IMG/VR virus record: IMGVR_UViG_3300044728_000232
Span: 1 to 43,510 of that record
Direction: 5' to 3' (one strand)
Length of the DNA stretch: 43,510 nt
Source of the DNA: a virus
Lineage: Duplodnaviria; Caudoviricetes
This document shows positions 2,977-42,882 of the stretch, piece after piece (the stretch's first letter is position 1; each line of letters opens with the position of its first letter). A model generated the notes under the pieces. The model did not search any database. It was not told where the DNA came from and worked only from the letters and a program-made list of their open reading frames with translations. Both the position numbers and the translations under genes were made by a program.

Positions 2977-4289
2977 GGCTTCATCCCCCCAGACGTAAAG
3001 AGAAGCTCTTCCAGACGTTTAATCTCCGCGGCCTTCTCCTCTTTCGACATACTCCCGATCGGTTTCCCGGGCGCCGCAGGCTTCGTCGGCGCCACCGGCG
3101 GGACAAGAGCAGGTTGGGGAGTATTCGGCACCTGAACCGCGCCGAGGTTATATTTCGTCATGTCCTTAGTGGTCAGAGCTTCATGCAGGCTCTGCCTAGA
3201 GGATTCATATTCCGCCTGCCTCCGCCCAGCAACGCCCAGGAGAATCTTCGACAGCGTAGAACGGGCCTCGGGACTCTGTTGCAGGCTCGGGAGGGTTTGG
3301 GCAATCGCCGCCGCCTCTTCCTTCGTCACGCCCTTATTCCCGCCATACTGCCCGACAAGTTGCTGGACAGCTTCTTTCGCCAGGGAATCGAAGGCTTGAG
3401 AATTCGCCAGAGTCGCATTATCGATCTTCATCCCCGCCTGTTTTGCGAGGCCCTCAAGCCAAACCACCGGCGCCGCAGCCGGACCGGAGATAACCCCCGC
3501 CTCATCCAGCCCGCCGAGTTGTTTAAGCGTATGCGAAAGCTCTTGAGCCGACCTCGCAGATTTCCCCAGAGCCTGGTTATCCTCCACCGCCGCCTCTGCC
3601 CATTTATCAAACCCCTTATCCTGCCCGGGGAGAGTGGTTGTAATCTTTGTCTCTTTTGGGGCGAAGGTCAGATTCTGCGACCTATCCGCATCCTCGGTCA
3701 GAGCATACGCATTCCCAGACGCATCTTTTCCAAGCACCGGCGCAGCCCGTGGATCGAGAGTCAATCCACCCTGTTTCGGGAACTTGTTATTCGACAGCAT
3801 ATCAATAGCAGCCAGAGGATTTTTCGTTGTCTCCAGCGCTTTCGCTCCGGCGAGAATCCTCTTCTGCTGGGCGGCTGCCATAGCATTCGCCGCCGCCTGA
3901 ACCTGGGGATAGCGCGTCTGTCCCATACCATGAGAGGCCCGCTCATCCTCGGGCAGCGCATTCATGGCGTCCATCGCCCCCTGCTGCTCTTTCTGGTATC
4001 CAGTAAGAACCTCTTCCGCCTCCCGGCCAGCATTCTCCGATCCCCGCTGCCCGAGATAGCCCTGAAGCACATTCGCCACCATCGAAAAGGGGCTGGTTTT
4101 CGCCGCGATGCGGCCCTGAGACTGGGGCGGCCTGTTAATGTTCTGCATTGCCCCCGTCTGGAAACTCCTCGCCATCTGCTGCCGGGCGAGAATGTCTTGA
4201 ATCTGCTTCTGCACGTCGGACGGAAGCGCCTGGGGATTCTTCCCCCCTTGGTTCTTGAAAACCTCCATGAAATCTTCAAAGCCGTCCAT
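2973..4289 (-). CDS. Putative internal virion / DNA ejection protein
   Basis: 438 aa, Ala/Gln-rich; 4-bp overlap with the downstream gene. Confidence 0.6.
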   Translation of the reverse strand: MDGFEDFMEVFKNQGGKNPQALPSDVQKQIQDILARQQMARSFQTGAMQNINRPPQSQGRIAAKTSPFSMVANVLQGYLGQRGSENAGREAEEVLTGYQKEQQGAMDAMNALPEDERASHGMGQTRYPQVQAAANAMAAAQQKRILAGAKALETTKNPLAAIDMLSNNKFPKQGGLTLDPRAAPVLGKDASGNAYALTEDADRSQNLTFAPKETKITTTLPGQDKGFDKWAEAAVEDNQALGKSARSAQELSHTLKQLGGLDEAGVISGPAAAPVVWLEGLAKQAGMKIDNATLANSQAFDSLAKEAVQQLVGQYGGNKGVTKEEAAAIAQTLPSLQQSPEARSTLSKILLGVAGRRQAEYESSRQSLHEALTTKDMTKYNLGAVQVPNTPQPALVPPVAPTKPAAPGKPIGSMSKEEKAAEIKRLEELLFTSGGMKP

Positions 4290-4899
4290 TTTGCAACCTT
4301 TCGACTTCGAGCGCGATTAGGGGATAATGTTTCTTCAGAAAGGGCTGGCGCCAGGAATTCTCCTCCACCAACCCCGTGCATCTCATGCAATCCATCGACA
4401 TGCTCGCCTCAGAAACTTGGAGAAACTCGCTCCCCTTAATAAAGGTCGAGACTTCATCCTCCGTCCAGGATTGGAGGGGGAAAATGTAGGTTATCCCCTC
4501 AACCACCGCCCCAGACCGGATCGGAGATTTTATCCTATCAACGTCCTTCTGCCCCCGGATGATCTTCTCCGCCCCAATCTCCCGGCAGAAATCCCTCAGC
4601 GGCAGCATCTTCGAGAGGAAGCAGCAACTCGTCCAATGCTGTTCCCTCGGGGAGATGACGGAATCAACAGGAATCCCCTTCCTCCGGACCTCCCAAACTC
4701 GCCCCGGCACCGCGACGAAATGAGGGGCGATAGTCTTAACCCGCTCCATCTGCTCGTATGTTTCTGGGAACGAATCCCCCGCATCCAACCAGGCGACGGT
4801 GATTTCGTCGAGATAGTCCCGAAACATATGCAAACAAGCGACGGAATCCTTCCCCCCAGAGAACTGGAGAACAGTTTTCGGGAGGGAGGCAGAAACCAT
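4276..4899 (-). CDS. PAPS/APS reductase-family (PP-loop) protein
   Basis: QFSGGKDS PP-loop, DAGDSFPETY, CC..SK..PL, IRGQK, PLQSWT, CxxC; lacks the C-terminal ECGLH of CysH. Confidence 0.85.
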   Translation of the reverse strand: MVSASLPKTVLQFSGGKDSVACLHMFRDYLDEITVAWLDAGDSFPETYEQMERVKTIAPHFVAVPGRVWEVRRKGIPVDSVISPREQHWTSCCFLSKMLPLRDFCREIGAEKIIRGQKDVDRIKSPIRSGAVVEGITYIFPLQSWTEDEVSTFIKGSEFLQVSEASMSMDCMRCTGLVEENSWRQPFLKKHYPLIALEVERLQNGRL

Positions 4900-22752: not shown

Positions 22753-23253
22753 TCAGAGAATGTCCTCTAGAAGGAATTTCGCGTTGAGGAAGTTGCGGTT
22801 GGTCCAATCCTTGCCGTAGGCGGGCCAGGAGGGGAGAGATTGGTGGAAAAGCTGGCGGGACTGGATGAAATTCAGGGTGATGAGGGGGCCAGCGTATTTT
22901 AGGGCGGTGAATGTTTCCGGGGTGAGGTCCCCGGTCAGAGGGAGCCCGATGGATTGCTGGAAAAGCCGGATAGCCAGGGGCGGGCCGGAGGAAACAGCGC
23001 ACTCGAAAAGGGGAAAAGCGATGAAATAGGGAATCTCATCGGCGCGGAGGGGCAGCCAGTATTCCTTTTCGTAGATTTCCCGCGCTTTTGCCTCCGGCAA
23101 AAAACAAACCTCCCCTTCGTATCCATGTTTCCGGATAATCTGACCGGAGAGGCCAAACGCTGCTTCGCGCCCAAGGTGCGCGGGGTGGTTAATATACGCA
23201 CGGGAATTCGCGAAGAGGCGATCTACCGCCTTTTGGAAATTGGGTCCCATCAC
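22753..23253 (-). CDS. GH108 lysozyme-like protein with degenerate catalytic motif
   Basis: Matches the GH108 + PG_binding_3 pattern (Y.NHP, A.EIY...YW, LF..AV.SG, W..YG..W..R), but EGGY is replaced by SRAY. Confidence 0.75.
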   Translation of the reverse strand: MMGPNFQKAVDRLFANSRAYINHPAHLGREAAFGLSGQIIRKHGYEGEVCFLPEAKAREIYEKEYWLPLRADEIPYFIAFPLFECAVSSGPPLAIRLFQQSIGLPLTGDLTPETFTALKYAGPLITLNFIQSRQLFHQSLPSWPAYGKDWTNRNFLNAKFLLEDIL

Positions 23254-23723
23254 TCCCCCGGATTCGTATGGGAAATATCAATGACCTCGCCCCGGGAGGA
23301 GTTTTCCAGCCAGGCCCTCGGGTCCTTCGCGGGCGGCGGGAGATGAACGACGTAGAGATTATTCTGCGTCTGCGGGAGAGCTTTTATCTGATTCCGGTCC
23401 CCGACCCCCAGTTTCGCCGCGGAGATAAGATCAGAGTTGGTGAAGGGCTGCTGAGTGTCGAGCCGCTCTAGGAGTTTATCCAGGGAGCGTTTCGCCAACG
23501 CCTCTAGCCTCATCTCCACCGAGGCCCGGAGTTTTGGGTCGACGAGTTCCCCCTTCCGCTCCTCAAGCCTTTCCTTAAAACTGTCTGAGTTAACAATAAT
23601 ACTCATCCAGCTCTGCGAAAAGCCGAATCGAGCCGAAAGCTCCCCCTGGGATATGCTCGGGAACGCAATAATCTCGTCAATAATCGCGTCATGCGTATAT
23701 CGAACCTTCGCAATCTCGGGCAT
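23250..23723 (-). CDS. Terminase small subunit (putative)
   Basis: N-terminal HTH (ISQGELSARFGFSQSWMS), helical core; first gene of the packaging operon. Confidence 0.6.
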   Translation of the reverse strand: MPEIAKVRYTHDAIIDEIIAFPSISQGELSARFGFSQSWMSIIVNSDSFKERLEERKGELVDPKLRASVEMRLEALAKRSLDKLLERLDTQQPFTNSDLISAAKLGVGDRNQIKALPQTQNNLYVVHLPPPAKDPRAWLENSSRGEVIDISHTNPGE

Positions 23724-23928
23724 GAGGGCTCCCCTTAGAAAACAGCCCCAGTCTCCTATCCCCGATCCGCAAAATCAAGCCCCAGGGGGCATTTTGAAAA
23801 CAAATTCACTGTGGATGGTCGTTTTCAAGTTTACATTGTGCCTCGATGGACAGCCAGGCTAAACTCCCCCTCCCGCTTTCGCAATCCGGGATATCCCCCC
23901 GGGGGGGTCGGCGCTGGCGGATCGGGGA

Positions 23929-24388
23929 AAATCCACAGGTTATCCACAGGGTTATACACAGCTTCCCCACAGTTTTATCCACAGAGGGAGGGAACAAGGG
24001 AGAATGGGGAATATCCCTAGGGAAAACAGGGGGATTCGGGGATGCGTTGCCCCATGTTGCCCGGGTTCCCCGTCGCGGCGGATTCGGGCAGGATGCGTGC
24101 CAGAGGGAGGGCGTTGTTACGTTTGGTTACAATATTTTTTTTTTTATCAGAAACCCCCTCCCAATAGCCTGCGCCAATCAGGCGCAACCGCTGCCGCGAC
24201 CCGACGGGAAACGCGGGAACGATGGGGAAAGTTGGCCCGCGCCCACTTCACCCTCGATTTTATCCACACGTTATCCCGGGATTCTATGGGGCAGAACGAT
24301 AATCGGGGAAAATAGAACGAAACAGTGGATAACATGGGGATAAGCCCTGTGGATAATAGCGAGGGCTGGTGTGGATAAGTTATCCACA
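23929..24388. promoter_or_regulatory. DnaA-box cluster / oriC-like region
   Basis: Perfect TTATNCACA at 23940, 23952, 23975, 24260, 24380 (+) and 24348, 24370 (-); near matches at 23929, 23963, 24324, 24335; AT tract ~24127-24148. Confidence 0.85.
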
Positions 24389-24594
24389 AACTGCGCAGGA
24401 TCGTCGATCGGGGATGCGCCGGGGGCTAGGTAGCCAAAAAGGGGAAAATCGCTCTACGGGCATTCTGGTGCGTTTTAGAGGCATGGAGTTTTATCCAGTT
24501 TTGCTAGGTGTTTTCCCTTGAATTCCCATTCCTGGCACGGGGATTGCTACGCGGGCGCTGGCGTGCGTGTTGTGATTCTGCGACAGGGAAAAGC

Positions 24595-24623
24595 TTGCAC
24601 GGGATTTTCCCCGGGTGTAGAAT
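24595..24623 (+). promoter_or_regulatory. Sigma70-like early promoter
   Basis: TTGCAC-17 bp-TAGAAT upstream of the first plus-strand gene. Confidence 0.65.
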
Positions 24624-24653
24624 CGCTCTGCGATGACAAACAAGGGGCACGGA

Positions 24654-24776
24654 ATGAACGAAGAAACGCAGGCGCGGATTGACGCGCTGGCACGGGCGCT
24701 GGAAAGCTTGCGCGCTGCCGGGGAATGGGAACTTGCCGCGAAAGTGGCGAAGCGTTTGTATGCACTCACTCACTAA
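24654..24776 (+). CDS. Small hypothetical protein (40 aa)
   Basis: MNEETQARIDALARALESLRAAGEWELAAKVAKRLYALTH; AAGGGG RBS. Confidence 0.6.
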   Translation: MNEETQARIDALARALESLRAAGEWELAAKVAKRLYALTH

Positions 24777-24792: not shown

Positions 24793-26268
24793 ATGGCAAT
24801 TACCCTCAACGTATGGCAACCCGCACCGAACAAGCCTGTTCGCCTTTATCTGAACGGGCTAGACAATCAGCGGCGGGAAAACAAGGCATGGCTCGCCGAG
24901 TTTCAAGGCACGGCGCACCCCTATTTTGAGGGATGCACGGACACGCAGGTGCAACAGGCTGCCGAGTGGTTTAACGCTCAAAACAAAGATTGGCCCGTAA
25001 TGCTCGCACTTGCTCAGAAAACCCCCGCGCTGATTCCCGCGCCTGTCGTGGATCGCACGCCCGCAATACGCGCCGCGCTGATGGCATCATCGATTGTGCA
25101 CGTTGCGCCTGCGGCAAGAATGGCGGGGTTGAGTTTCCGCAATGGGTTGAGCAAGGTCGAGATAATCGACCGACTGTGCAGCGACCCTGAGATGGCAGCC
25201 CGCGCACTGGAAAACATCACGCGCCTGCGCGCAGGCAATATCGCCCCTCCCGCACCAGTCAAGGCCGATTGGATCGACGATGATGACATTCCCGCGCCAA
25301 CGCAGGCGCCGACAGTCAAGCCCTCGCAAGCAATCGACCTAAGCGCCTACGCGCTGAAAACCGAAGTAAGCGCCGAAGTTATCAAGCTTGCCCGCTCAGT
25401 CCGCGAAGCACGGGAAAATGCAGACGCGGGGATTGCTGCCCTCGATGCGCGAATCAGCGCCGACCTTGACGCGCTGAAGCAGAATCGCCCCCTTGAATTG
25501 ATTTTCCCCGAATTGCCCGCGCCTATCAAAGTTCCCGCGCTGCATCATCCCCAATTCGCGGATTTGGTGTTAACGCTTCAATGCAAGCTTCACGCGATGC
25601 TAGTCGGCCCCGCTGGATCAAGCAAAACCTTTTCCAGCGAACAGGCCGCAGAGGCACTCAGCCTGCGGTTTTACATGCAAGGCGCTATCTCCTACGCGCA
25701 TGAATTGCTAGGCTATGTCGACGCGCATTCACGCTACGTTAGAACGCAATTCCGCGAAGCATTCGAGCACGGCGGATTGATTCTTTTGGACGAATTCGAC
25801 GCTAGCGCCGCAGAGGCCGCACTAGTTCTAAATGCCGCACTCGCTAACGGCGCCTGCGCATTCCCCGATGGTCTTATTCGCAAGCACGCGGATTTTCGTT
25901 GCATCGTTGGCGCTAATACTGACGGTAGCGGCGCCACGATGCAGTATGCAGGCCGCGCCCGACTTGATGGGGCTTTCCTTGACCGCTTCGTAAACTTCGA
26001 TTGGCAAATTGACCCCCGTATCGAGGATCATCTGAGCAAGGGGAATTCCCGCATCGTTGCCGCTGTCCGTGCGGTTCGTGAATTCGCGCACAAGCGGGGG
26101 ATTTTGGACGTGGTTGCAACCCCCCGCGCAATCGCCTTTGGTGCCACACTCGCGGCGCGGGGAATGGCCCCCTCCCTAGTTCTAGAGCGGACCATGAAAC
26201 GCGGCGCCCTAGTCGAATGCTGGCGTGATGTTCTGCGCCTTGATGCTGTCGTGCAATTCCTTGCCTGA
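24793..26268 (+). CDS. MoxR/CbbQ-type AAA+ ATPase
   Basis: Walker A GPAGSSKT, Walker B LLDEFD, ANT.G.G, LDGAFLDRF, TPR; AGGAG RBS. Confidence 0.85.
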   Translation: MAITLNVWQPAPNKPVRLYLNGLDNQRRENKAWLAEFQGTAHPYFEGCTDTQVQQAAEWFNAQNKDWPVMLALAQKTPALIPAPVVDRTPAIRAALMASSIVHVAPAARMAGLSFRNGLSKVEIIDRLCSDPEMAARALENITRLRAGNIAPPAPVKADWIDDDDIPAPTQAPTVKPSQAIDLSAYALKTEVSAEVIKLARSVREARENADAGIAALDARISADLDALKQNRPLELIFPELPAPIKVPALHHPQFADLVLTLQCKLHAMLVGPAGSSKTFSSEQAAEALSLRFYMQGAISYAHELLGYVDAHSRYVRTQFREAFEHGGLILLDEFDASAAEAALVLNAALANGACAFPDGLIRKHADFRCIVGANTDGSGATMQYAGRARLDGAFLDRFVNFDWQIDPRIEDHLSKGNSRIVAAVRAVREFAHKRGILDVVATPRAIAFGATLAARGMAPSLVLERTMKRGALVECWRDVLRLDAVVQFLA

Positions 26269-26282
26269 TTGGAGTATCTAGA

Positions 26283-27125
26283 ATGGCCCTCTTTTCCCCC
26301 TCGCTAATGCAAGATATCCCCTCTGAAACCCTGAACATGTCGATTGGGCATCTTAGGGAATCGGCGGGTTCTGATATGCCGTTTTTCCACTGGCAAGGCA
26401 CGCACTCTGCGTTCATGGAGTTTTACCGTCAGTGCCTGAAGGACGATACAAACGCGGGGGCAAGCCTGCGCCGAAATACAAAGGAATTAGAGGGGCAGCG
26501 CTCATGGTCGGGTTTGAGCGAACCCGCCCCCGCTTTCATCGAATCAGGAATCAGCATCGATGCTGCCCGCGAATTCCAGACCACCACTGCAAAACTCCAC
26601 GCAGACCGATTCGCACCGGGCGCGGTTCGCCCCGCTGTTGCTGGCGGTGCGTGGATTATCCCCCTTACCCTAACAGGCGCCCCAATGCCTGCGCGAATCC
26701 GTGAGCGTACAAAACTCCCCCCGCTGAATATCAATCTTGGAATCACGGCAATGGCGCGGACCAACTGGAAGGACGTTACAAAATCCCTTGCCTCAGTCGC
26801 TCACGCCGCGTGGCAATACTTGCAGGCCGGTGGCGCCCTCACTCTGACCGCTAATTATTGCTGGGCTTTCCACTCCCCAATGAACGGGAATCGCGGCCTA
26901 GTCGTTTCGATCAAGGCGCCTCTTACTTCACAGGCCGCATTCGCGTCAGCCTGTAGCCTGCAAACGGCACGGGCGCTAACCCTCTCACTAGCGCAAAGCC
27001 TGAGCGGGGTTCCTAACGGGCATGATTCGATTCCCCTCGCGTACTGGAAAAAACCCGGCTTGCATATGGTCAACGGGCTAGCAGGCGAAGATGCGGGGAT
27101 TCTCTCAGCCCTCAAGATCGCGTAA
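26283..27125 (+). CDS. Putative partner of the MoxR ATPase (degenerate vWA-like)
   Basis: Directly downstream, GGAG RBS; VAGG...P..L.G.P..M pattern; no intact DxSxS MIDAS. Confidence 0.55.
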   Translation: MALFSPSLMQDIPSETLNMSIGHLRESAGSDMPFFHWQGTHSAFMEFYRQCLKDDTNAGASLRRNTKELEGQRSWSGLSEPAPAFIESGISIDAAREFQTTTAKLHADRFAPGAVRPAVAGGAWIIPLTLTGAPMPARIRERTKLPPLNINLGITAMARTNWKDVTKSLASVAHAAWQYLQAGGALTLTANYCWAFHSPMNGNRGLVVSIKAPLTSQAAFASACSLQTARALTLSLAQSLSGVPNGHDSIPLAYWKKPGLHMVNGLAGEDAGILSALKIA

Positions 27126-29237: not shown

Positions 29238-30704
29238 ATGCATTCATCCCCTCATGGTTGCGATGCCCTAGGCGAATTCGCTCTCGGGCGTCTTATCGTC
29301 ACGGTCCGGGAAAACACAGCCCCGGTCCAAGTCGAAGAACTCGCCCGTTCCCATTCCGCCCGGGTTGAATCCCTCGGGGAAACGCATTGGCTCTTTCACT
29401 TCCCAGAGGGGGCGGATATCGAGGGGAAAATCCCCCTCCTCCTCATAATCCCCTTCGTCCGATTCGCCGAACTAGATCGAGTCGTGCGGATTCCCGAATG
29501 GGAGGGGAAAGAGGAAGAGGGGGATAATCCCGCTCCCCTCCTCGTCACAAATGACCCTCTCATCCCCAAACAGTGGCACCTAAACGCCTGCAACGTAAAA
29601 CCCTGCTGGGACGTAACCACCGGGGAAGGTATCTACGTCGGGATTATCGATACCGGCATCTCCTACACCCACCCCGATCTTATCGTAGACCAAGAAAAAT
29701 CTTGGAACTACTACGCCGGGACCGCTGATGCCCGGGATGATAACGGACACGGAACCTGCGTCGGCGGCGTCGTCGCAATGGTCCTAAACAACGCGAAAGG
29801 CGGGGCGGGAATTTCCCCCTCCGCAATCCTCGTCGCGTTTAAGGTCGCCGATTCTACGGGTCTGGGATACTGGTCTAAAATCGTCGCCTCCATCAACGCG
29901 GCGATGGGGAAAGGCGTCCGCGTCCTAAACGCCTCTTTCGGGGACCTCCTCAACGCCGGTTCCATCCTCTCCGCCGCTGCCGCGTATAAGGCGAAGGGCG
30001 GGATTCTCTGTATCGCAGGCGGGAATACCGGAAACGACCCCGGCTACACGCCGTCCGATTCCGTCATTACTGTCGTCGGTACAAATCAGTCGAATGTCCG
30101 GTGGTCTAGTTCTTCTTACGGACCCTGGGCTAATATCGCGGCTCCCGCAGTCTCTATCTGCTCCTCCCTCATGTCGGGCGGGTATACCTATTCCGCCTCG
30201 GGAACTTCCTTCGCATCCCCAATCGTCGCAGGCGCAGTTGCGCTAATCATGACCGCCTCGAAACTCCTGACGAGTAAGCAAATCGAGGAAGTTCTCTACG
30301 CCACCGCGACTCCCATCTCCTCGGCGGGAATGGGGAGCGGGAAACTCAACGCCTGGAAGGCCGTAACTCACGCCCAAGAATTCAACCCGAATCCCCCTAT
30401 CGAACCTCCCATCGAGCCCCCGGTCGAACCCCCTCCCATCGACATTACCGCCCCGACCGTAACCATCTCCGCGCCGGATACCATCTCGGGGAACGTCACC
30501 GTTTCTATGGCCTCCTCCGAATCCGCCGCCCTGGAAATCCTCATCAACGGGAAAATCCGCGCAACCGGAACCGGGCGGGCCTTGAAATTCCAATGGAACA
30601 CCCGGAAAGAGGCGAAGGGGAATCACCTAATCCTCGCCCGGGCCACTGACTCAGCCTCTCCCCCAAACATTGGGCAGGCCGAGAAAACCGTAGTTAAATC
30701 CTAA
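29238..30704 (+). CDS. S8 subtilisin-like serine protease with C-terminal Ig-like domain
   Basis: Catalytic triad IIDTG / NGHGT / SGTSFASP; N-terminal prodomain; PPIE linker; D.TAPTVTI...ARATD..N.G. Confidence 0.92.
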   Translation: MHSSPHGCDALGEFALGRLIVTVRENTAPVQVEELARSHSARVESLGETHWLFHFPEGADIEGKIPLLLIIPFVRFAELDRVVRIPEWEGKEEEGDNPAPLLVTNDPLIPKQWHLNACNVKPCWDVTTGEGIYVGIIDTGISYTHPDLIVDQEKSWNYYAGTADARDDNGHGTCVGGVVAMVLNNAKGGAGISPSAILVAFKVADSTGLGYWSKIVASINAAMGKGVRVLNASFGDLLNAGSILSAAAAYKAKGGILCIAGGNTGNDPGYTPSDSVITVVGTNQSNVRWSSSSYGPWANIAAPAVSICSSLMSGGYTYSASGTSFASPIVAGAVALIMTASKLLTSKQIEEVLYATATPISSAGMGSGKLNAWKAVTHAQEFNPNPPIEPPIEPPVEPPPIDITAPTVTISAPDTISGNVTVSMASSESAALEILINGKIRATGTGRALKFQWNTRKEAKGNHLILARATDSASPPNIGQAEKTVVKS

Positions 30705-33575: not shown

Positions 33576-33826
33576 AAGAAATTGAAATCCCCTTCTACCC
33601 CGCCCACAAAGGCTCGAAGCCCGTCAACCTTGGCGAAGCCCTGCGGGACCAAAACTTCTGTGTTTCCCTCCTCGGGATTCTCCTCCTCCGGTCAGGGGAA
33701 AAGTTCTTCTCCTTTTCCCAATCCGACTTCGACTCGATCACGGGAATTTCTGTCCTTGAAGGACAGGATATGCAAACCGGGGAATTCCTCATTGGCCTCG
33801 CTTATCCAGCGGAGAAAAACGGATGA
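33572..33826 (+). CDS. Hypothetical protein
   Basis: GGAGG RBS; ATGA coupling on both sides. Confidence 0.65.
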   Translation: MKEIEIPFYPAHKGSKPVNLGEALRDQNFCVSLLGILLLRSGEKFFSFSQSDFDSITGISVLEGQDMQTGEFLIGLAYPAEKNG

Positions 33827-34152
33827 TCGCCTATAACTTCGCAGACGCCGAAGCCGAAACGTATATCCGCTTCGAGATTCCCCTCTACGACGGAATCCCC
33901 GAGTTCCAGTTCGCCTACATCGACTTCACCCTCATCACGCCTTTCCCCGAAGGATATTCCCTCGACATGTCGGCCCGCCTCGTCGAGTTCTTTTCCCCCT
34001 CCCTCGAATTCTCCATGACCGGGACTTCTTGGTTCCTCACCCTCCCCGGCATCCACCTGTTCGGGGATTCCCTCCGTCAAATCCCCGAGCCGGGAACCAT
34101 CGGCCTCATCCTCGCCGGTCTTTTCACCCTCTTATCCCTTCGCCGCACATGA
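33823..34152 (+). CDS. PEP-CTERM sorting-domain protein
   Basis: C-terminus IPEPGTIGLILAGLFTLLSLRRT = PEP motif + TM helix + basic residues. Confidence 0.85.
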   Translation: MIAYNFADAEAETYIRFEIPLYDGIPEFQFAYIDFTLITPFPEGYSLDMSARLVEFFSPSLEFSMTGTSWFLTLPGIHLFGDSLRQIPEPGTIGLILAGLFTLLSLRRT

Positions 34153-38386: not shown

Positions 38387-38599
38387 ATGGAACCCCCCAT
38401 TCCGCCCATCGTCACATTCCCCCCTTGTCGGGCCTGCGTTCATTATCGCTCCAGGGAGAATATGCAGCTCTGCGTCGTTCAGCCGAAGTGGCCTGAAACC
38501 ATCGCCGCCGCCGTCCGTTGGAGAGGCCCCAACTTCCTCTGTTTTCAGGAAAGAGATAAAACAAAATGCAACCCGTCGGACCAGTCCCCGCCCGTATAG
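38387..38599 (+). CDS. Small Cys-rich hypothetical protein
   Basis: AGGAG RBS; CRACVHY...C. Confidence 0.55.
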   Translation: MEPPIPPIVTFPPCRACVHYRSRENMQLCVVQPKWPETIAAAVRWRGPNFLCFQERDKTKCNPSDQSPPV

Positions 38600-41004
38600 C
38601 CATCATCGGGGAAGCCCCAGGCGCGGAAGAGGAGAGGCGGGGAGAACCCTTCGTCGGGGCCTCTGGCTCTTTGCTAAACAACCTCCTCCAGAAAGCCGGG
38701 ATAAGTCGCGCCTCCTGTTTTATCACGAATGTCTGTAACGACCGACCTCCGGCAAACGATATCGGGGAATGGCTCTCAGACAACAAAAGACCGCCGGAAC
38801 CGAATTGGGAACATCTCTACGGGAAATGGGCGCATCCGAATATCATCGAGGGGCGGAAGAAGCTCTTGCGGGAGTTAGAGGAGGTAAAACCCGACCTCAT
38901 TATTGTCCTAGGCTCCACCCCCCTCTGGGCCTTGACGGGAAACAGCGGAATCTTGAAATGGCGTGGGAGTAGGCTGAGCTTCTACGGGGAAAACTTCAAA
39001 GCCACAGTCCTCCCCTCGATCCATCCCGCCGCCGCCCTGCGGGAAATGTCCCTCGCCCCCGTCCTCCTGATGGACTTCAAAAGAGCCCTAGCTCTCCTCG
39101 AAGGCCGCCAAACTCCCCGAATCTATGACTTTAAGATTAACCCGTCTTTTTCTGAAACCGTCGAATTCCTCACCGGCCTCCTCGCCCGCGCAGACGCCCT
39201 CCTGGGCGGAGACTCAACCCTCCTTCTATCCGGCGACCTTGAAACCCGCCTCGGCCATATCGCCTGCTTCGGCATCGCCTGGAGCAAGACGCAAGCCTTC
39301 TGCATCCCCTATTTAGAGCTGAATAAAATCAACCCCTTCTACTGGCCCGTGGAAGAAGAGGCGATGATAAACCATCTCCTTATTCAACTCTTCACCCACG
39401 AGAAAATCGTTTGGGTCGGCCAGAATTTCCTCTACGACTGCCAGTATTTCCATAGATTCATCGGCGTCGTCCCGAATACTGTCTGGGATACGATGATCGG
39501 CCATCATTCAATCTACTCCAACATGAGAAAGGGCCTCGACTTTCTCTCCTCAATGTACGCCCATGACCACGTTTACTGGAAAGATGAAATCAAAGAGTGG
39601 GACCCAGCCGTCGGGGAAAAACAGTTCTGGACCTACAACTGCAAAGACGCCTGTATTACCTACGAAGTTTTCGAGGGGATTCAGATCGAGCAATGCAACG
39701 AGGCGGTTTCGGAACATTTTCTATTTCAACAAAGCCTCTTTCACCCCGTCTTGAGAATGATGAACCGGGGGATAAAGATGGACACGGGCCAACGCTATGC
39801 GTTGAGAAAAGAACTCGAAGCGGCTTCGCTAGAAAGACAGATCAACCTCGAATACATGGTGGGCCATGAGATAAATCCCCGTTCCTCGAAGAAGCTGATA
39901 GAGCTTTTCTACCATGACCTCCGTATCCCCGGGATAAGGTCAATGACGACGGATAATCTAACCGTCGGCAGCCCCGCTCTGGCAGAAATCTCCAATCGCC
40001 ACCCCGTCCTAAACCCCCTATGCCAAACCATCGCCGAGTTAAGGTCTATCAGCGTTTTCTTAAATACCTTCATCGCCGCCGAGTTAGACTCCGACGGCAG
40101 AATGCGCTGCTCCTTTTCAATAGCCGGCCCGACTACTTTTCGATTTTCCTCTTCCGAGAACGCTTTCGGTTCGGGAATGAACCTCCAAAACATCCCCATC
40201 GCAGAAAAGATAAAAATAAAAGGCCACAACAATCTCTCGTTGCCAAATATTCGGAAGCTATTCGTCCCCGACGCGGGTTATACCTTCTTCGATATGGACC
40301 TAGACCGAGCCGACTTACAAGTCGTGGTTTGGGAGGCAGACGACTCTGAGTTAAAACTCGTCCTCCGTTCCGGCTTAGATATGCACCTTGTCAACGCCTG
40401 CACGATTTTTGATATTAAAGGAATCCCCTATGACGAACTATCTGAAACTCACCATAACTATCGAGAGCATCGAGGGCGGATCGGAGAACCCTCTCGTAAC
40501 AAGGCAAAAATGGGAGTTCACGCCACAAATTACGGCGTCGGAGATTACAAACTGGCCGCAGCCCTGGGGATTACTGTCCGCGAAGCTGCACTTTTTCGAT
40601 CACGATGGTTCGGTGCGCATCCTGGAATACGGCGGTGGCACCTACGGGTCGAAACGTCTGCCACGACCGACGGTTTTATCACAAATCCATTCGGAGCGAA
40701 ATTTCACATCTTGGGAAGGTTCGACCTCCCGGAGTGCCTTGCCTGGGGACCCCAATCCACCGTCGCCGGGGTTATCAACCGCGCCCTCGTTAACATCGAC
40801 AGAGCCGAGCAAAGAGGAGAAACCTCCGTCCAACTCCTCCTCCAAGTCCACGATTCCCTCGCCGGGCAATTCTTAACGGTTGAGAGGGACAAAGAAGAAG
40901 CGAACCTTCGCCGATTAGCCCAAATCACCATCCCCTATCCCGAACCCCTGATTATCCCCGTAGGGATTAACTGCTCAACCCAATCCTGGGGACATTGTAA
41001 ATGA
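38566..41004 (+). CDS. Family A DNA polymerase with N-terminal uracil-DNA-glycosylase-like domain and 3'-5' exonuclease
   Basis: UDG family 4 motifs GEAPG..E...G.PFVG.SG and HPA; exonuclease DLET / N..YD / YN..D; polymerase RFSS..NLQNIP, R..AK...YG, VHDS. Confidence 0.92.
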   Translation: MQPVGPVPARIAIIGEAPGAEEERRGEPFVGASGSLLNNLLQKAGISRASCFITNVCNDRPPANDIGEWLSDNKRPPEPNWEHLYGKWAHPNIIEGRKKLLRELEEVKPDLIIVLGSTPLWALTGNSGILKWRGSRLSFYGENFKATVLPSIHPAAALREMSLAPVLLMDFKRALALLEGRQTPRIYDFKINPSFSETVEFLTGLLARADALLGGDSTLLLSGDLETRLGHIACFGIAWSKTQAFCIPYLELNKINPFYWPVEEEAMINHLLIQLFTHEKIVWVGQNFLYDCQYFHRFIGVVPNTVWDTMIGHHSIYSNMRKGLDFLSSMYAHDHVYWKDEIKEWDPAVGEKQFWTYNCKDACITYEVFEGIQIEQCNEAVSEHFLFQQSLFHPVLRMMNRGIKMDTGQRYALRKELEAASLERQINLEYMVGHEINPRSSKKLIELFYHDLRIPGIRSMTTDNLTVGSPALAEISNRHPVLNPLCQTIAELRSISVFLNTFIAAELDSDGRMRCSFSIAGPTTFRFSSSENAFGSGMNLQNIPIAEKIKIKGHNNLSLPNIRKLFVPDAGYTFFDMDLDRADLQVVVWEADDSELKLVLRSGLDMHLVNACTIFDIKGIPYDELSETHHNYREHRGRIGEPSRNKAKMGVHATNYGVGDYKLAAALGITVREAALFRSRWFGAHPGIRRWHLRVETSATTDGFITNPFGAKFHILGRFDLPECLAWGPQSTVAGVINRALVNIDRAEQRGETSVQLLLQVHDSLAGQFLTVERDKEEANLRRLAQITIPYPEPLIIPVGINCSTQSWGHCK

Positions 41005-41396: not shown

Positions 41397-42631
41397 CCGA
41401 TTCCGCAATCCCCATCCGTCCACCCTCGCCCCAAAACGATAAAAGAGAACTCCATGACTGGCTCACAGAATTCGTCTCCAACACAAAATGGGGAGAAGCC
41501 CCAGACTATTTCTATTTCTGGGTTGGAGTCGGGACAATTGCGTCTGCGCTCCGTAGACAGGTATGGCTCAACATGGGAACATTCCACTGGTTCCCTAATC
41601 TCTATATACTCCTTGTGGCTCCACCGGGGGTTATTCAAAAGTCATCCACTGCCGATTTGGGGCTCCTCCATCTCCTTAAGAAAATTGAGGGGATTAACTT
41701 TGGCCCGTCAACTGTCACCTGGCAGGCCCTGTACGACGCTTTTGCGGAAGTGGGAGAGGCTGTTGATATCTCGCCTGAACTCCAAATCACGCAATCGGCT
41801 CTTGTTATCAATTCTTCGGAATTCGGTATTACCCTCAACCCCAAAGACACCGAGATGGTTGACCAACTCGTACATATTTGGGACGGGCGAGAAATGGCGA
41901 AAAGGACTCGAAAGGACGGATTACTCGTCATCCCCACCCCCTGTTTGAACATGATCGCCTGCACGACCCCCGCGTGGATAGCGGAAAACATGCCCCGCTA
42001 TCTAATCGGAGGAGGACTTACGTCCAGAATGCTCTTCGTCTACGGGGAAGAGAAGGCCCGGTATATCGCCTACCCGTGGAAACACATGCCGGTAGATTAC
42101 GAAGAGTTTCAGGCGAAGCTAGTCCGGGACTTAAAGCGGATTTCGATGATGAAAGGGGAATTCCGCCTAACGCCCGAAGCCGTCCAATGGGGAGAGGATT
42201 GGTATGAGCGATTCCACAAGGTCGAAAAGCTCCAACTCGATCCCACCCTGATCGGGGGATATATCGCGAGAAAACAAACTCTCGTTCATAAGGTCGCGAT
42301 GATAATGTCGGCCTCGCAAGGGGATAGCATGGAAATCTCTCTCCTCCACCTTCAGCGCGCCGTCGGGGCCATCACCGAGCTAGAGAAAAACATGCCCCTC
42401 GTCTACTCCAAAATCGGAATGACTAAAGAGTCAAACGCGGGCGAGCAGATTATCGCCTATCTGAACCGCTATGGGGGAAAAGTGGCCTGGGCCGCCCTAT
42501 TCCAATACATGCACCGCACCTTTCCCAAGGTGGAGGAGGTAGAGGATATTCTCCGGGGCCTGATCGAAGCCGGGTATGTCAACATCGACAGAGCGGAACG
42601 AACCGTTATTCTACTGAAAAGACCGGAATGA
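41393..42631 (+). CDS. DUF3987-like P-loop protein (putative replicative ATPase/helicase)
   Basis: GTG start; PNLYILLVAPPG..KSS, SSEFG, WDG, GG..SR; C-terminal winged helix. Confidence 0.7.
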   Translation: MTDSAIPIRPPSPQNDKRELHDWLTEFVSNTKWGEAPDYFYFWVGVGTIASALRRQVWLNMGTFHWFPNLYILLVAPPGVIQKSSTADLGLLHLLKKIEGINFGPSTVTWQALYDAFAEVGEAVDISPELQITQSALVINSSEFGITLNPKDTEMVDQLVHIWDGREMAKRTRKDGLLVIPTPCLNMIACTTPAWIAENMPRYLIGGGLTSRMLFVYGEEKARYIAYPWKHMPVDYEEFQAKLVRDLKRISMMKGEFRLTPEAVQWGEDWYERFHKVEKLQLDPTLIGGYIARKQTLVHKVAMIMSASQGDSMEISLLHLQRAVGAITELEKNMPLVYSKIGMTKESNAGEQIIAYLNRYGGKVAWAALFQYMHRTFPKVEEVEDILRGLIEAGYVNIDRAERTVILLKRPE

Positions 42632-42882
42632 AAAATCGGCCCTTCTTCCGCATTTTCCCGAAAGTCGCCTCCGAGGGATATTGCTGTATGTTTGGCTACC
42701 TGAGCCTCTGTCGCGCCCGAGGAGAAACCAAACAACAGATGGCGAACTGGCTCGGGATTAACTTCTGGACAGTAAAATACAACTATCGCTGTCTAAAGCA
42801 GGGTCGGCATACCTGTCAGAAACTCGAAGGCTGTTTAAAACCCATCATCGACGATCTTCAGCCTCCGGATGGGGCTGAGTAG
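42628..42882 (+). CDS. Small HTH/Cys protein (putative regulator)
   Basis: KQQMANWLGINFWTVKY HTH-like segment. Confidence 0.5.
   Translation: MKNRPFFRIFPKVASEGYCCMFGYLSLCRARGETKQQMANWLGINFWTVKYNYRCLKQGRHTCQKLEGCLKPIIDDLQPPDGAE

Follow-up and report, generated by a model that had tools for sequence, protein, structure and literature searches.

The window analysed here, a DNA stretch of 43,510 bp, is a complete phage genome of 43.4 kb that was assembled circularly with an end overlap of 127 bp. The late arm, on the minus strand, comprises a terS-like ORF and the genes for endolysin, terL, portal, capsid and tail proteins, and the early arm, on the plus strand, encodes a MoxR/CobS-like AAA protein, a PD-(D/E)XK nuclease, a Sak4-like protein, a uracil-DNA glycosylase (UDG)-PolA fusion and a DUF3987 protein. 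The two arms diverge from a gap of 930 bp (23724-24653) which, as had been claimed for it, is the largest non-coding gap of the genome (the next one has 143 bp). The product of the first late gene has no family match, and its identity as terS is deduced from the position of the gene. The closest named records are remote (terL, 58% to MW202489). The phage was found in two runs of one soil sample, which is probably the source sample, so they do not represent independent isolations; no RNA data set was listed as containing it. Contigs from both runs span the entire gap with zero differences, and one of them circularises at 43,413 bp; no sign of the chimeric join that had been named as a possible objection is seen, with the limit that the two runs share a sample. 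The coordinates of the main features are collected in Table 1.

Table 1. Features of the window, with positions counted from its first nucleotide
Feature	Position	Strand	Remarks
terS-like gene, first of the late arm, likely small terminase subunit	23250..23723	-	assignment by location, with endolysin and terL downstream
Clade-wide G/C element (GGCTAAACCCC-like word plus C-run/G-run palindrome)	23857..23909		135-185 bp upstream of terS
Left DnaA-box array	23929..23983	+	five co-oriented sites spaced 11/12/11/12 bp, three perfect
AT-richest 40-mer of the genome (32/40)	24114..24153		composition scan; T11 run at 24135-24145, adjoining GTTACA words
Single perfect DnaA box	24260..24268	+	in one arm of an 18-bp inverted repeat; other arm 24348-24365
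Right DnaA-box array	24324..24388	mixed	24324, 24335, 24348 and 24370 minus; 24380 plus
Conserved non-box part of the cassette	24427..24499	+	GGTAG word, ~35-bp block, terminal two-mismatch DnaA-like word at 24491
Perfect sigma-54 -24/-12 site	24533..24548	+	12/12, exact spacing; faces the early arm
Possible sigma-70 promoter	24595..24623	+	8/12, by eye, below scan threshold; precedes first early ORF at 24654
UDG-PolA fusion	38566..41004	+	Pfam UDG, DNA_pol_A_exo1, DNA_pol_A
DUF3987 protein, predicted phage replicative helicase	41453..42631	+	Pfam E 7.7e-16; MCM-like fold
84-aa protein	42628..42882	+	directly after the helicase in 10/10 near-complete relatives

A scan of the window for sigma-70 promoters and terminators gave chance-level output only, and the possible promoter of Table 1 was not part of that output. 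Two Rfam matches within the gap were discarded for lying far below the gathering score. With respect to gene content, the CobS/MoxR-like AAA ATPase and its partner (24793-27125) are the first large early genes, as they are in 10/10 near-complete relatives. The early arm also carries a subtilase (S8) gene (29238-30704), absent from the 12 compared genomes, and encodes a short PEP-CTERM-tailed protein (33823-34152), and a gene of the PAPS-reductase family (4276-4899) sits within the late arm.

Seven perfect copies of the DnaA box TTATNCACA are found in the whole 43,510 bp (23940+, 23952+, 23975+, 24260+, 24348-, 24370- and 24380+). The count of the 9-mer over the genome, which had been proposed as a check, thus places all seven in a single gap, as originally described, and none outside it; shuffled sequences contain a mean of 0.28 copies and 0/100 reach seven. 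No other 9-mer of the genome is as strongly clustered locally: the box has 6 copies within 500 bp, against 3 for the runner-up. The at least four near matches of the original prediction are likewise present, two of them with one mismatch (24324- and 24335-) and two with two mismatches (23929+ and 23963+), and both the tandem spacing of 11-12 bp and the inverted pair at 24370/24380, with its gap of 1 bp, are as reported. The left array begins 20 bp from the G/C element and is rarely retained as an array in relatives. Within the right array, a triplet of strong, weak (TTATCCCCA) and strong boxes reappears in relatives, and the inverted pair is not conserved. The idea of an ABC-priming hairpin with a box in its stem was dropped, as the inverted partner is not conserved. 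As to the AT tract said to lie between the two arrays, its presence stands, and it is the AT peak of the genome; its T11 run, however, is separated from the left array by 151 bp and from the nearest box to the right by 114 bp. A run of at least eight A is found in 13/15 close relatives, including 8/8 of those that lack boxes.

Relatives were gathered via terL and terS, two of the searches being represented by the best 80 of 108 and the best 80 of 85 matches. With terS (23250..23723) as anchor, 189 loci were collected and reduced to 127 non-redundant ones, that is, the window and 126 relatives. The relatives contain 51 strict boxes in 137 kb of the syntenic gap upstream of terS, versus 16 in 748 kb of flanks, and two or more boxes occur in 12/69 relatives with at least 1.2 kb covered and in 0/356 flank windows. 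The exact form TTATCCACA accounts for 40/58 strict gap boxes, the window included. This enrichment, mostly of the exact form, bears out the assignment of the boxes as DnaA-consensus sites. In a distant subclade (L070, L141, L144 and L149), one reversed and two tandem perfect boxes are found ~1.4-1.56 kb upstream of terS, and small ORFs occupy the intervening stretch.

Conservation among the relatives, which had been suggested as a further check, gave a patchy picture. The close clade was defined by a terS at least 50% identical and at least 1.2 kb covered, and left out two partial hits (L100, with one box, and L169, with none). Two or more boxes are present in 7/15 of its members, and 8/15 have at most one. 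G010 brings the box-positives to eight, its boxes being located at the opposite end of the contig. A terS tree was built from 16 rows, with the mistranslated row of L062 and the truncated row of L142 left out. On this tree the box trait requires four changes, two of which are forced by well-supported branches, and it is no more clustered than in shuffles (about 60/500). Taken together, the enrichment of boxes in the gap over the flanks, the eight close relatives without an array and the changes on the tree support the view that the boxes are under selection and yet optional.

When the window was aligned with five relatives, the right array was found to be followed by a GGTAG word, a conserved block of ~35 bp and a sigma-54-type site. 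Judging from this alignment, the early-side boxes belong to a cassette of ~220 bp which ends in a perfect sigma-54 site. For scoring, we used the -24/-12 consensus of sigma-54. It agrees with E. coli ChIP sites in the text available of PMC4591121. The site at 24533..24548 is the sole one in the genome that scores 11 or more. Box and sigma-54 site are 155-170 bp apart in the window, L034, L054, L062 and L139, and 204 bp apart in L137. In L049, a close sister of L034 and a single contig of 3.2 kb, a block of ~220 bp covering the array and the -24 element of the sigma-54 site is missing, and the flanks align with those of L034. The cassette, without a clear sigma-54 site, is also present in G011, in a gap between early genes and holin/terL; this phage has no detectable protein in common with the window, and encodes a primase, a DnaB-like helicase and PolA.

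Several pattern scans were run for parts of the locus. A 19-mer cassette pattern returned 7 stretches, namely 2 relatives that were already known, one new box-bearing phage in 2 copies, and 3 others, the latter rejected as copies of one chance match in a box-free coding region. A two-box pattern returned 14 stretches, 10 of which were inspected, and the cassette tail was seen in L283 only. The strong-weak-strong triplet was found at 8 loci in viruses and 21 in bacteria, spread over many taxa; being thus not clade-specific, it allows no host assignment. A search of plasmids yielded short box matches only. Very dense DnaA-box arrays were also noted in non-coding gaps of four unrelated viral contigs (L241, L244, L245 and L239), with about ten or more sites each in the first three and, in L239, an array that adjoins terminase and portal genes.

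Sites for sigma-54 are a property of the gap in the close clade as a whole: with a score of 11-12 of 12, 44 sites fall in 40 kb of gap and 3 in 221 kb of flank, and 38/44 gap sites are oriented toward the early arm. At least one site scoring 11 or more is present in 11/15 close relatives and none in 4/15. Three tandem sites at 18 bp were noted in L039 (~196-232 bp upstream of terS) and in L059, and five near-perfect sites each in L134 and L161. Sites 18 bp apart are too close together to be separate promoters. The multiple sites of these four gaps resemble binding arrays more than promoters.

Other words resembling sites of host regulators are found in the same place. TGACA-N5-TGTCA words occur in the gap of 6/8 box-less and 2/7 box-bearing close relatives. 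Counted over 24 kb of gap and 166 kb of flank of relatives, there are 9 of these words in the gap versus 1 in the flank, 7 versus 2 IHF-like sites and 2 versus 0 Fur-like words. In L017, L033, L039, L042, L130, L134 and L040, palindromes similar to TGACA-N5-TGTCA precede a sigma-54-like site that is followed closely by the first early ORF, and several of these gaps add an IHF-like site, which is the classical enhancer layout. An earlier reading of the TGACA repeats as Pho boxes was dropped in favour of the palindrome. Palindromes resembling Fur boxes were seen in the gaps of L128 and L134, and inspection by eye showed similar words for L130 and L001 as well. In the gap of the window, neither an upstream activator site nor a strict IHF site was seen. 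Going by its sequence, the gap appears to be a place where sites for host proteins accumulate in changing combinations.

Early and packaging genes that face away from one gap are the layout of phages with their genome ends there. We infer that the gap is the cut site of a linear genome, so that its DNA would enter the cell first. Out of 16 gaps, 10-13 contain the 8-mers of the G/C element, where chance would give 0.4-3.5, and the element is a candidate packaging or end signal; a pattern scan for it returned only three contigs, all of them already known. Among the 18 close-clade contigs that end within 1 kb upstream of terS, 10 have their end 540-670 bp away from this gene, next to the A run. 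The range was chosen after looking at the data, and homopolymer runs may break assemblies. For the window, the end position is deduced from contigs, and the array may lie in a terminal repeat.

The replication genes were compared in the near-complete relatives (n = 10), of which four have arrays, five have none and one has an incomplete gap. The PD-(D/E)XK nuclease, Sak4, PolA, the DUF3987 protein and the small protein downstream of it are present in 10/10. As this gene set is common to all of them, the box-less members replicate with the same visible kit. The structural model of the DUF3987 protein has a pLDDT of 88.6, and every Foldseek match listed is an MCM subunit (best E 1.7e-10, TM 0.41-0.50); a sequence search with the DUF3987 profile against solved structures gave 0 hits, and the protein is placed by fold search only. 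DUF3987 has been classed as an MCM-related SF6 helicase (PMC4889955) and another DUF3987 protein unwinds DNA (PMC11724360), as far as the text available of both sources goes. The protein is predicted to be an MCM-like replicative helicase. No primase or initiator was recognised among the ORFs of the window or among 128 further early ORFs of relatives. The remark that no phage initiator, primase or DnaB was recognised thus stands for the first two, but it is misleading in that it missed the predicted helicase at 41453-42631. The 84-aa protein, for which weak helix-turn-helix leads only were obtained (atlas scores 0.85 or lower), is a candidate DNA-binding or origin protein of the phage. As judged from gene content, the clade would replicate with an MCM-like helicase and no recognisable primase. 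In G001, G003 and G009, the polA match is split in two, and in G003 and G009 HNH endonuclease ORFs lie in the break, which suggests introns.

Clusters of DnaA boxes near phage genome ends have precedents, so that to present the locus as a candidate for an undescribed system goes too far. T5-like phages have eight boxes in the left terminal repeat that were argued not to serve replication; the boxes of the T5 iss region are nearly invariant in 25 phages and were tied to two-step injection (bioRxiv 10.1101/866236, in the text available). They are still called poorly understood in the accessible text of PMC13250531. Like T5 iss, as far as described there, the window combines, in one large non-coding stretch, consensus boxes with variants such as TTATCCCCA, clustered and set in close pairs, and it has a polymerase of its own. 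Unlike those of T5, the boxes of the window clade are optional and linked to sigma-54, and the genome end is deduced. No match to A1/A2 (T5-type) PHROGs was found among the 58 window ORFs, many of which have no family.

When named phages were searched with the gap, short box arrays were found in T7-like and Arthrobacter phages (17 records). In A7, all 8 strict boxes lie in the 177-bp terminal repeats (4 per copy); in phiEap-1, 10/12 lie in repeats of 195 bp (5 per copy), and in ZK1, 12/15 in repeats of 292 bp (6 per copy). These three phages are annotated with their own primase, DNA polymerase and RNA polymerase. BA14 has zero strict boxes genome-wide, and T7 zero in the first 1,000 bp examined. 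In the 50,000 of 50,530 bp of Tiff81 that were examined there are three boxes, none of them more than 92 bp from the right end. The arrays seen in terminal repeats of cultured T7/SP6-like phages and, for two Arthrobacter phages, at the right end (ends of L268, L274 and L275; L270 and L271) are patchy within Berlinvirus. Like the window, the terminal repeats of the Autographiviridae phages A7, P483, nasanit, phiEap-1 and ZK1 and the right ends of Arthrobacter phages Tiff81 and Seahorse have co-oriented perfect boxes spaced 11-22 bp, in a patchy distribution; their records show the genome ends, whereas that of the window is deduced.

A further parallel is given by alphaproteobacterial phages, in which CtrA sites lie in terminal repeats or gaps, a case of "lytic deferment" with binding and regulation shown experimentally (PMC9437464). 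Like those phages, as the available text presents them, the window concentrates sites of a host cell-cycle regulator in a terminal or gap region, and coupling to the state of the host is proposed. Unlike theirs, tested by experiment, the regulator here would be DnaA, as predicted from the sequence. The same study, in the text available, found no DnaA-site asymmetry in its phages, and the available text of one other phage paper offers an Ori-Finder prediction only (PMC11512268). Our literature search, which covered main texts and few subscription papers, returned nothing on this clade, on DnaA boxes in T7-like terminal repeats or on phage sigma-54 arrays. What is new is this lineage, its sigma-54-linked mobile cassette and the natural plus/minus pairs.

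As the boxes had been read as either a mini-oriC or a DnaA sponge, we compared the gap with origins and with non-origin clusters. Several high-affinity boxes, partly in tandem, are present in the window. Scored for DnaA-trios in the strand orientation presumed to be the right one, the window contains one weak trio run (1/4 trios consensus) after the weak boxes 24324/24335, trio-like runs occurring by chance at 11-15% of positions; 2/12 box-bearing relatives have such runs, none with a consensus trio, and reading the opposite strand gives none in the window and some in 2/7 relatives. At least three trios within 16 bp of a box, the rule taken from PMC8287927, are not found in the window. Nor does an unwinding element adjoin the boxes, the AT peak being removed by the distances given above and kept in the 8/8 box-less relatives, or an invariant element exist, as 8/15 close relatives have at most one box and the block is absent from L049. 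The gap thus resembles oriC, as described in the accessible text of that source, in its high-affinity boxes, tandem phasing and AT-rich patch, but differs in that conserved trios are absent, the patch is >110 bp off, no dnaA or dnaN adjoins and the boxes are dispensable in the clade. With boxes missing from eight close relatives, replication genes in common, no trios and a predicted helicase of its own, the phage lends no support to the mini-oriC.

A DnaA-assisted phage origin is a rival reading, which we consider doubtful. The gap would be the origin of the clade, with the A-tract, the helicase and perhaps the 84-aa protein, and DnaA would help opening or load the MCM-like helicase in some members, as at some plasmid origins. 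Loading of MCM-type helicases normally requires an AAA+ initiator, and neither initiator nor primase was found; the arrays also flank the AT-richest spot, their 11-12-bp spacing is phased and the A-tract is widely kept. On the other hand, eight close relatives have the same replication genes and no array, trios are not conserved, the A-tract lies well away from the boxes, codon skew fails to separate box-bearing from box-less genomes, and the cassette and similar arrays are found in phages with complete replisomes. The sponge, retained as a rival, would consist in amplified genomes titrating DnaA, or shifting its ATP/ADP state as datA or DARS do, and halting host initiation; we think it unlikely. 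It fits the predominance of the highest-affinity form and an optional element that acts as a fitness booster, and plasmids with DnaA boxes delay initiation and datA titrates DnaA (PMC5835720, text available). Yet E. coli has 307 consensus DnaA boxes (same source), to which one entering genome adds little, so that, as we reason, many late copies would be needed, and the fixed distance to sigma-54 and the location at the genome end are left unexplained. In the text available of the respective sources, datA needs an IHF site between its essential boxes (PMC5835720), and DARS boxes I and II are opposed and 5 bp apart, with a third box (PMC6868365). The window shares with datA and DARS1/2 a non-origin cluster with one oppositely oriented pair; unlike them, it has no strict match to the IHF consensus between the boxes or elsewhere in the gap, and its pair is 1 bp apart and not conserved.

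It is distinctly unlikely, in our opinion, that a phage protein (the terminase or the 84-aa protein) recognises the repeats and that they only resemble DnaA boxes, or that they are neutral. The G/C element that they adjoin near terS is conserved, degenerate TTATCCCC words turn up often in these gaps and T7 carries its own short repeats at the ends, but unrelated phages with unrelated proteins converge on the identical 9-mer, and relatives with the same terS and small protein have no boxes. Furthermore, changes beside perfect boxes affect mostly position 7 (6/15, TTATCCCCA, listed for T5 too in the text available) and next most often the degenerate position 5 (4/15). An assembly chimera with a host oriC, or its recent capture, is very improbable and already largely refuted: although the triplet is also found at the 21 bacterial loci, some of them beside dnaA/dnaN-like ORFs, contigs of both runs from the one sample cross the gap unchanged, 12 further contigs have arrays in the syntenic gap, and no dnaA or dnaN sequence lies nearby.

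The reading that we prefer, and to which we give an even chance, is that of an optional docking site for host DnaA at the presumed genome end and early control region, not a replication origin. Host DnaA would assemble on the phased boxes near the entering genome end, and the sigma-54 polymerase would occupy its own site about 160 bp from the boxes. The complex of both would gate the first early promoter and so tie early expression to the growth state of the host, and it may also coat the entering end. The array would be a fitness add-on and not an essential element, and other members of the clade would fill the same slot with other host-regulator-like sites. In favour of such a docking site are the patchiness of the boxes, the replication gene set common to relatives with and without them, the absence of the block from L049, the cassette in the unrelated G011, the box arrays in phages with complete replisomes (A7, phiEap-1 and ZK1) and at the right end of Tiff81, the concentration of sigma-54 sites in the gap with their prevailing orientation toward the early arm, the similar box-to-site distances, and the TGACA words of 6/8 box-less relatives. 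Against it, we know of no case in which DnaA is an activator of the sigma-54 polymerase, the gap of the window has no strict IHF site, and four close relatives lack a sigma-54 site scoring 11 or more. The TGACA words of two box-bearing relatives also mean that the exchange in the slot is not clean. The AT peak and a coding-strand skew that is C-rich outward on both sides of the gap would fit an origin, the skew being confounded by codon preference and not used as proof.

On a more speculative level, which we hold to be possible and on the unlikely side, many unrelated phages would coat the end that enters first with abundant host DNA-binding proteins (DnaA oligomers, promoter-locked sigma-54 polymerase, IHF) by means of exchangeable non-coding cassettes. 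If true, this would be a general cis-acting device for entry or end protection in which no phage protein is needed, and the DnaA-sigma-54 cassette would be one of its mobile units. What DnaA boxes do in the terminal regions of phages has been a question ever since T5 iss was sequenced, the essential iss being hard to mutate. Optional boxes with plus/minus sister pairs make this role directly testable, and cultured E. coli phages show an equal contrast, nasanit and P483 having arrays and BA14 none. The finding also reveals an uncultured phage clade with a sigma-54-rich end region.
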